A DNA stretch of 64,000 bases, taken from NCBI GenBank assembly GCA_951406725.2, contig OX597840.1, positions 20,212,001-20,276,000 of the forward strand, given 5' to 3'. The stretch is from Octopus vulgaris. Its lineage: Eukaryota. Both the position numbers and the translations under genes were made by a program. The notes under the pieces are model-generated. The model did no database searches. It was not told the origin of the DNA and saw only the letters and a list, made by a program, of their open reading frames with translations. Below, one piece after another: positions 41,201-44,200 of the stretch (position 1 is the stretch's first letter; each line of letters opens with the position of its first letter).

Positions 41201-44200
41201 ACTGGCAACGGCCACGATCGGATGGTTCGCTTACTTGTCACTGGCACTGGTATCACAGCTGCAATTTCCCTTGATGTTGATCGACTTCGATTTTGGTTCT
41301 GCTTTCTGATATCTGATTTGATTTTGATTTTCACTAACCGATGTTGGTGTGTTTATGTTCCCATAACTCATATATATAGTTGATCACATATATATATAAT
41401 CTTCTTAATGTTCTTCTAATTCTTCCCAGGTGGCATCAACATCAAAGAATTTGCTCGTCGTCTTTGGGGTGACATTTATTTCAACAGCAAAACGTAAGAT
41501 TATTTTTCGTTTATTTATTCATATATTCGCTCTCTCCTCTTAATTTCATTTACACCATTTTAGAAATTACCACCATATTAAGACTGAACCTGCCACCATC
41601 ACCACCACAGTACACTACCTTACCACCACCACCACCACACAAAGCTACTGGGCCATACTACTCTATGCCATACCCCACTACACTGAACAATCTCTCATTT
41701 GTTTAACCCATTACCTTCATTCTCTATTCCCCACACCCCTACCCTCCAATGCCCCCTAGTCATCATCTTGCCTCCCAGACTCATCTGTACTCTTCTTTCT
41801 ACATACCAGACGTTTTATATAAAAGTAGTAACGTAGAACTCAACAGCTGTTTCGAGAAGTCCAGAGATACATTATTATATTCTCTCCCTCTCCTCTGATC
41901 TCTCTGTTCTCTCTCTTCAGTCGACGCTTCACCAAGAAACCCCCCCACAGTACATCCCAAAGAAGTTTTGTGGAATTCATCCTGGAACCAATGTACAAGA
42001 TATTTGCTCAGGTAAGTTGATATTCTTTCACTGGTGCCAGTCAGTGTACCCGTGGTCATGCTGGGGCATTATTTTCATCTTCAAGGATTATAATCAATAA
42101 AATTAATGCCTATATTTTGTCATAACTCCTTAGCATTCAGATTACTCTGTTCAACACCATACTTATTTATTCTGGAGATTGTAGTCAAGATACCTGTGCA
42201 GGTGATGTGTAAAAAGCACCGTCTGAACATGGCAGATGCCAGCACCACCTGACTGGCGTTTGTGCCGGTGGCACGTAAAAAACACCCAGTACACTCACGG
42301 AGTGGTTGGTGATAGGAAGGGCATCCAGCTGTAGAAACACTGCCAGATCAGACTGGAGCCTGGTGCAGCCTTCTGGCTTCCCAGGCCCCGGTCAAACCGT
42401 CCAACCCATGCTAGCATGGAAAAACGGATGTTAAACGATGATGATGATGATATTCTGAATTAATCTTGCATTATCTCATAGCTTTGAGATTTCGACGATG
42501 TGATTGTTTATTTTTAGAATGACATTGTATGATGTGTGGGAAAGGCTGGATCTGGCCAGTATGAACATAAAATGGGTAGAATATTTTGGCTAGATATCAG
42601 CATCGTTGTCATCATTTAATGTCCATTTTCCATGCTGGCATGGGTCGGACAGTTTGACCAGGGTTGGTAATCTGGGGAATTGCACCAGATTCCAGTCTGA
42701 CTCAACATGGTTTCCACAGCTGGATGCCCCTTCCTAACGCCAACCACTCCAAGAGTGTACTGGGTGCTTTTTACATGGCACCAATGCAGTCGAAACATCC
42801 AGTAATTTGATTTAGATAATTTTCTGACTGTCATATTCAGTTAAGACGTTTATGTTTTTGATTTGAAGGAAATTTGGCTGCTGTTTCTAACAAGTCGAAA
42901 CATCCGGTAGTAGCTTTGTTGCTGTGAATTTGTCCCTTCCTCTTCCTTCATCCTCTTCCATTCTTCCTAAAACATCTTTATAATTCCGATGCCTTCTTTC
43001 CATTCCCAGATTGTCGGTGATGTTGATGAGAATCTTCCCAGTGTCTGCGAGGAACTCGGTATCAGCCTGACAAAGGAGGAGCGAAAGATCAACGTCCGTC
43101 CCCTGCTGAGGGTGGTGATGAAGCGATTCTTTGGAGAATTTATTGGTAAGTCGGATGGCAGCATTTCCAAAAAATCCTGAGTCTTGCTGCTCCGTACATT
43201 TGTGCATATGTATGTGTGTTAGGCTGGTGTGGAACAGTGATTCCCAACTGGGGCTGATATGGCCCTTGTTGGGGTCTGTATAAAATTTAGTTGGGGATCC
43301 ATATAAAATTTAGTTGTTCTGCTTCGGGTTGACAATAATGAGGTTGTGAGTTTGATTCCCAAGTCGGGCTGTGTGTTGTGTTCTTGATCAAGACACTTTA
43401 TTTGACATTGCTCCAGTTCACTCAGTTGTAGAAACGAGTTGTGACATCAGTGATGCCAAGCTGTCATGGCCTTTGCCTTGGATAACATCAGTGGCGTGGA
43501 GAGGGGAGGCTGGTATGCATGGTCGACTGCTGGTCTTCCCTAAACAACCTTGCCCGGACTTGTGCCTCAGAGAGGAACTTTTTAGATGCAATTCCATGGT
43601 CATTCATGACCAAAAGGGATCTTTACCCTATATGTATATATATATATATACATGCGCATACACATGTATGTGTGTATGTATATATATATATATATATATA
43701 AAAAACAATAATAAATCTCTGAACGAGATATAAACAGTAACTGCTCGACAACGTAAGGGGGATCAGCCATCTGAATGTGGATCCTTCATCGAAGAGCGGT
43801 ACTTACCATGCGTTGATAAGAGGCAATGACCTCGAAACCGGTCCGTATGTAGTATTCGTATCTTCGAGGGAGGATGACCTCCCTTTGCAGGCAAACAAGG
43901 ACACTGAGATGGTGTCAGCCCTTCTGGTGACGTTGATGATCGCCTGGGGCTAAAAGCATCAGTAACACCCCCACCACCCCGCCCTGTCCCTAGCCCCATT
44001 CAGATGGCTGATCCCACTTACGTTATATATATATATATATATATATATATATGTGTGTGTGTGTGCCTGTGGTTGTCTAATCCTTATGCAGAGTTTGACC
44101 ACCTCCTGTACCTACACCATAGCACCATCATGGCGTCTGATGTGGCTTTTCAAACCAGACAATGTTCTGAAAAGATCGTTAGCCTCTACAAATTTTTCTC

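Follow-up and report, generated by a model that had tools for sequence, protein, structure and literature searches.

A hammerhead motif in an octopus EFTUD2 intron belongs to a dispersed 360-bp repeat family with Penelope-type insertion marks

An intron of the gene EFTUD2 in Octopus vulgaris contains a complete hammerhead motif, and it may be asked whether this motif is part of a self-contained element that acts on its host gene or one copy of a larger mobile family. The window analyzed here is a stretch of 64,000 nucleotides (assembly GCA_951406725.2, contig OX597840.1, positions 20,212,001 to 20,276,000 of the forward strand). Within it, two plus-strand exons match the EFTUD2/Snu114 protein, one at 43010-43145 (Snu114 residues 384-427, followed by GT at 43146) and one at 44428-44556 (residues 430-470). 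They enclose an intron of 1282 bases (43146-44427) in which the element lies in sense orientation, as a preliminary description made from the sequence alone had stated. We take this to be intron 14, a number that fits human EFTUD2 numbering. Upstream of EFTUD2, at about 4600-7570 on the opposite (minus) strand, there are exon-like frames that presumably resemble a RecQ-type helicase.

The hammerhead (43807-43849, plus strand) is of type I and all of its described parts are found in the sequence: stem I (43807-43812/43844-43849), the core UUGAUAA with its U3-A8 pair (43813-43819), stem II (43820-43823/43830-43833), GAAA from 43834, a palindromic stem III (43837-43842), and a GUC triplet with a predicted cut after 43843. 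It had been called minimal. With a 6-bp stem I, a 4-bp stem II, and a 6-nt loop 2 whose two middle bases are the most variable, it is instead of canonical size. An Rfam hammerhead-model search gave no hammerhead match in the window even at E values up to 10, and an Rfam scan aimed at a C3-G8 copy, with the core in range, gave chance matches only and was left out of the verdict. The U3-A8 core as such has precedents: natural hammerheads with this pair are on record (PMC3088659), and about 1,300 U3-A8 motifs are reported to be tied to a Penelope-like element of Schistosoma mansoni (PMC4209133). The same EFTUD2 intron holds a second, minimal hammerhead-like motif (44220-44255, plus strand) with U for A at core position 6 and position 7 free. 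The pattern of this minimal motif has 14,378 genome matches and none in the control, and U6 is present in 98 of the first 100 matches listed.

The element has three parts. An inverted tail at 43702-43750 (minus strand) corresponds to the opening 49 bases of a following repeat unit (98% over unit positions 5-49). It is followed at 43751-43780 (minus strand) by an inverted copy of the last 30 bases of the unit (positions 331-360, 100%), which makes the apparent terminal stem, and then, at 43781-44023 (plus strand), by a 5'-truncated unit that aligns with genome copies over positions 119-360 of 360. Unit positions 50-118, the TATA-bearing part, are missing. (TA)n tracts flank the element on both sides, as described; the 5' tract ends at about 43700 and the 3' tract occupies 44024-44052. 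The ends of the element pair because the repeat's own 3' end, together with the tail, stands inverted in front of the truncated unit as a 79-bp copy (43702-43780). The terminal arms that had been described do pair, but the 5' arm occupies 43751-43777 and so lies ten bases to the left of the 43761-43787 first assigned to it.

A DNA search of the octopus genome with the element returned 65 matches from the best 40 of 1492 candidates, the best at 97% identity, and in 63 of these 65 the match starts no earlier than query position 21. Upstream of their match, other copies carry the rest of a 360-bp unit, and the inversion breakpoints vary from locus to locus. The head-to-tail period of the loci is 360 bases. 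The unit is non-coding with 48% GC; full units adjoin head to tail with no ORF between them, and no enzyme frames are found inside units. What had been taken for a closed unit of about 260 nt (263 nt) is a 5'-truncated copy of this dispersed repeat, and its paired ends come from the inversion.

Several related families share the ribozyme. The exact core region of the window's subfamily occurs 31 times in the genome, 30 times as U3-A8 and once as C3.A8. A general core pattern has 574 exact matches and none in the control; the first 100 cover families A (the window's family), B, and C and consist of 91 U3-A8, 8 C3.A8, and one U3.G8 core with unrelated flanks, with no C3-G8. Contigs aligned on the unit pointed to further elements with the same tail, and pattern searches for these led to families D, E, and F (189, 104, and 29 matches), which have the canonical C3-G8 core, and the D/E pattern of this sister core has 419 matches against none in the control. 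Mean identity between families A to E is 45-83%; U3-A8 is present in three of the five aligned families and C3-G8 in two. The genome holds hundreds of related copies, and the earlier suggestion of a retrozyme-type family whose type I hammerhead has a U3-A8 core is supported. An amplified C3.A8 subfamily with shared diagnostic bases (L214-L218, L103) retains the cut triplet (six motifs at five loci); together with U3.G8 copies (L279, L280), which are two of the 30 LINE-adjoining loci listed, it may represent intermediates of the core swap. In the C3-G8 families (L158, L165, L190, L200), stem II is mismatched at its base, and stem III is a longer palindrome of 8 bases. One insertion on contig C31 is found in eight copies with identical flanks (L071-L078), and the surrounding block has been duplicated several times.

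The fold was evaluated on 18 hand-picked sequences from five families, a set with few independent changes. Families B and C were found by core pattern, so that invariance of the core is partly built in and is no evidence, while the stems were unconstrained by the search patterns. The core with its 3-8 pair, GAAA, and a UH cut site is present, and positions 3 and 8 are paired in 17 of the 18 sequences (U-A in 10, C-G in 7, unpaired in 1), which agrees with the compensatory swap proposed earlier. Stem I is 93.5% paired with double changes in four of six pairs, stem II is 87.5% paired with double changes in two of four, and the stem III palindrome is kept through a double change from C-G to U-A on both sides. 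The whole structure is 86% paired; none of 500 shuffles was as high, and slid controls reached 23-44%. A separate alignment of families A-C gave the same stem support. On the tree of families, which lacks copy L087, a single change separates U3-A8 from C3-G8, its direction being undefined under a midpoint root. Two further hairpins noted earlier are both present in the window copy; GACAC/GTGTC is conserved (96%) and AGCCC/GGGCT is not (47% of cells paired, 18 sequences). Helix 6, a hairpin at 43900-43916 with compensatory changes in five families, has 96% of cells paired and double changes in two of six pairs. Helix 8, a conserved hairpin near the fixed 3' end (43992-44010), is 90% paired and has one mismatch in the window copy. 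The hammerhead is well conserved and is likely to be self-cutting.

How do these copies enter the genome? Loci L001-L117, which are best matches and no random draw, were reduced to 71 distinct insertions, some segmental duplicates remaining among them. The 3' end is fixed: of 137 pieces extending into the 3' region, 125 terminate precisely at position 360, and the 5' ends scatter. Inverted pieces are present in 30 of the 71 insertions, a tail ending at positions 38-50 in 33, and (TA)n within 25 bases in 52, compared with 225 of 2340 control sites. Candidate target-site duplications are found in eight of the 71, two of them apparently internal. Continuous runs longer than a unit plus tail number 34 of 107, and these long runs cross the cut site unbroken; the longest has 844 bases, under three units. 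The family's mode of insertion resembles that of Penelope-type retroelements: the 3' end is constant, partial tandems and inversions occur, the tail has about 45 bp, and (TA)n tracts are the targets. The same layout of partial tandems, inversions, and tail has been described for Penelope-like elements (PMC8557442), and the tail has been tied to two internal start sites of reverse transcription (PMC11167929). These reports also share with the octopus family the inverted 5'-truncated copy, the one-sidedness of the tail, the (TA)n targets, and the fixed 3' start; the tail reported in them is 30-40 bases, compared with 44-49 in the octopus, whose unit encodes neither reverse transcriptase nor endonuclease.

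The unit itself is of the kind known as non-LTR retrozymes, being a protein-free tandem repeat in the range of 150-450 bp with GC below 50% and one type I hammerhead per unit. As reported for Metazoa (Cervera and de la Pena 2020, PMC7229834), such retrozymes, especially the 350-390 bp repeats of mussel and the 330-350 bp repeats of axolotl, are likewise short protein-free tandem units of low GC with a canonical type I hammerhead and a weak palindromic stem III that favors dimers. The octopus families differ from that account in having a U3-A8 core in three families and short partial tandems with inversions in place of long arrays. Penelope-like hammerheads, including the S. mansoni U3-A8 form, resemble them in core, palindromic stem III, and dimer model; those described have a stem II of 7-8 bp, a stem I of 4-5 bp, and an extra base after position 9 (PMC4209133), whereas the octopus stems have 4 and 6 bp, with no extra base and no ORF. 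For Xenopus non-LTR retrozymes, dependence on a Penelope enzyme has also been proposed, and solo copies are common (Li, Clavereau, Pollet, bioRxiv 10.64898/2026.07.22.740005). The link in that vertebrate study is sequence likeness to terminal repeats; in the octopus it lies in insertion signatures, and neither the searches for tail-sharing elements nor the one autonomous family compared gave a homologous autonomous element. A literature search listed no paper on a retrozyme from octopus or another cephalopod; a repeat entry may be deposited in Repbase or Dfam.

Beyond the demonstrated unit length, copy layout, insertion pattern, and covarying fold of the family, we consider it likely that the intronic element is a 5'-truncated, 5'-inverted copy, predicted to yield no circles, of a non-autonomous, protein-free retrozyme with a conserved type I hammerhead, and that a Penelope-type enzyme placed this copy in a TA microsatellite. 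Transcription would take place at two-unit loci, with a TATA element some 30 bases ahead of unit position 126 as its probable promoter. Two hammerheads would then pair via the palindromic stem III and cut, freeing a 360-nt monomer able to close into a circle. A Penelope-type reverse transcriptase would start at a fixed site, either the unit end or the tail end, and copy more than one unit length, and such over-length copying would give rise to partial tandems and inversions. It counts against this reading that a same-strand pair of ribozymes is present in only seven of the 71 insertions.

A TATA-like box precedes position 126 by about 30 bases in full units of families A, B, D, and E, and the same spacing is found in the U6 cluster; further upstream of the TATA box, units and U6 cluster have no visible likeness. 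The cluster consists of five U6 genes in tandem (L308-L312, contig C1:139423726-139428422) with a TATA box and an octamer upstream, and the other U6 matches are mostly retrocopy-like. A run of five Ts at unit positions 57-61 (L030, L112, L158, L190, L115), after the tail and before the TATA part, is conserved in the families compared and is a possible terminator. The unit sequence is present in sequencing runs under five organism labels, and none of the listed runs that contain it is on record as RNA. Contigs were aligned on the unit for three of these labels. Head-to-tail joints occur in contigs of three of four runs, and a related family has one contig of 390 nt that is closed by a 30-nt terminal overlap with a period of 360; tandem DNA would be equally able to give both pictures.

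The strongest competitor, somewhat unlikely in our judgment, accepts the same family and Penelope-type mobilization and has an uncut linear multimer as the template, with the fold kept for slow cutting or enzyme binding and with circles no intermediate. Several observations suit it. The mismatched C3.A8 subfamily has spread. No accumulation of 5' ends is seen where the ribozyme would cut (4, compared with a mean of 3.1), and there is a mild excess near position 126 (12, compared with a mean of 5.6; 3 of 310 windows are as high, the window having been picked after the fact). Cleavage was also dispensable for insertion of an anole element in vitro (PMC11167929). Against a linear template, bases 3 and 8 swap as a pair between families, and three runs (L062, L089, L108) start upstream of position 126 yet carry a further full unit. 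Such runs, all under three units, are more easily explained by a circular template.

It is improbable that the repeat represents the terminal repeat (pLTR) of an autonomous Penelope-like element of which only truncated pieces are seen. Its insertions are laid out exactly as those of Penelope-like elements are, and the genome does contain intact young Penelope-type ORFs: an endonuclease piece beside copy L103 led to a large young family (best 150 of 14,862 candidates) with an intact frame of 722 codons (L209:7245-9410, L213) and copies 98-99% alike. Its assignment to the Penelope type rests on motifs recognized by eye, because Pfam gave no match to the ORF. However, full units of the octopus repeat stand head to tail with no ORF between them; among the 218 loci screened with the 722-codon ORF, the only matches were endonuclease remnants in the flanks; and the end of this one autonomous family, the only one compared, has no likeness to the unit. 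Three pattern searches for tail-sharing elements found only further protein-free sister families and no autonomous partner. The abundant Penelope-type family (L209, L213) has a microsatellite-rich terminal repeat of about 2.7 kb with a minimal hammerhead-like motif near its end. Another candidate pair of terminal repeats, L101 and L102, 5.6 kb apart, was rejected since they flank a LINE.

A LINE with zinc knuckle, endonuclease, and reverse transcriptase sits in a tandem of family B (L118, contig C1:68118500-68128000; further copies at L293, L294, and L263-L292). Among its best 30 3' ends (from the best 40 of 168 candidates), 27 run into units whose closest family is B (12), D (14), or E (1), the junction lying at the same site about 25 bases before the hammerhead core. 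Two of the remainder are followed by another hammerhead-like repeat and one by a short stub, and none by a unit most like family A. This other repeat (L264, L265), a family of different sequence with C at core position 4, is also a target of the LINE. Duplications of 18-20 bases flank three of three full-length copies. By our own reading of its domain layout and targeting, the LINE appears to be a young Tx1-like element. Targeting of other repeats by Tx1 elements has been described (PMC4494074); a literature search listed no paper on a Tx1 element that targets a hammerhead repeat.

What does the single copy do in EFTUD2? In each of the five contexts that were folded, the whole intron included, stems I and II have a predicted probability of 0.78-1.0. 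Stem III has probability 0 in the monomer (a penalty of 6.2 kcal/mol), the palindrome duplex has -8.3 kcal/mol, and stem III is accordingly predicted to form only as a dimer. Axolotl hammerheads with such a stem III are reported to cut to 6% in an hour as monomers and far better as dimers (PMC7229834), and eight of nine Xenopus retrozyme dimers are reported without cleavage. The family includes loci with at least two consecutive ribozyme units, and the window copy, with one ribozyme, is not among them. Because the putative promoter part is absent, it would be transcribed only with EFTUD2; cutting would be slow if it occurs at all, and cleavage of the pre-mRNA by the lone copy is predicted to be weak and to need a partner RNA. 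The small circular RNA once suggested for this locus would need two cuts, and the intron holds one such ribozyme, so a circle cannot be cut from it. Circles from this copy and an effect on EFTUD2 are unlikely, and the copy is most likely a passenger.

The idea that the copy has been recruited to cleave EFTUD2 pre-mRNA and so adjust splicing-factor levels has very little probability in our view. Its sense orientation, intact core, and folding of stems I and II in the whole intron speak for such a role, but the copy has hundreds of counterparts in the genome, the nearest of them 97% identical, its 3' part has two unselected mismatches, and its stem III is predicted to need a partner. In addition, the two flanking EFTUD2 exons are directly joined in a contig of run X1, the intron having been spliced out there in an animal that may lack the insertion. 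Introns hold 42-44% of Xenopus retrozyme copies (bioRxiv 10.64898/2026.07.22.740005). Least credible of all, and refuted by the layout of the copies, is a closed 260-nt element with ends paired by design: its 31-nt inverted repeat is 94% complementary, but nearly all other copies match only from query position 21 onward, continue upstream into the rest of the 360-bp unit, and are inverted at different breakpoints. The fold z-score of 43761-44023 is -4.25, and without the inverted arm it is -1.6 and -1.0, no better than shuffles; the hairpins of the window copy have probabilities of 0.39 and 0.89-0.98 with the arm and 0 without it.

The single intronic copy is probably of little importance, and the interest lies in the family, which places unmistakable Penelope-type insertion marks on an invertebrate retrozyme and so bears on how such RNAs move. 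Natural U3-A8, C3-G8, C3.A8, and U3.G8 versions of one ribozyme occur in one genome, which makes the need for self-cleavage in spreading directly testable. A wider reading, less likely than not, would be a superfamily of circle-forming hammerhead retrozymes in which the 3-8 pair has flipped between U-A and C-G, C.A and U.G states are still amplified, an snRNA-like promoter lies upstream, Penelope-type enzymes drive the spread, and a site-specific Tx1-like LINE uses the units as its landing site. If this is true, the superfamily would be a natural series in which to test whether the rate of cleavage sets the spread of retrozymes.
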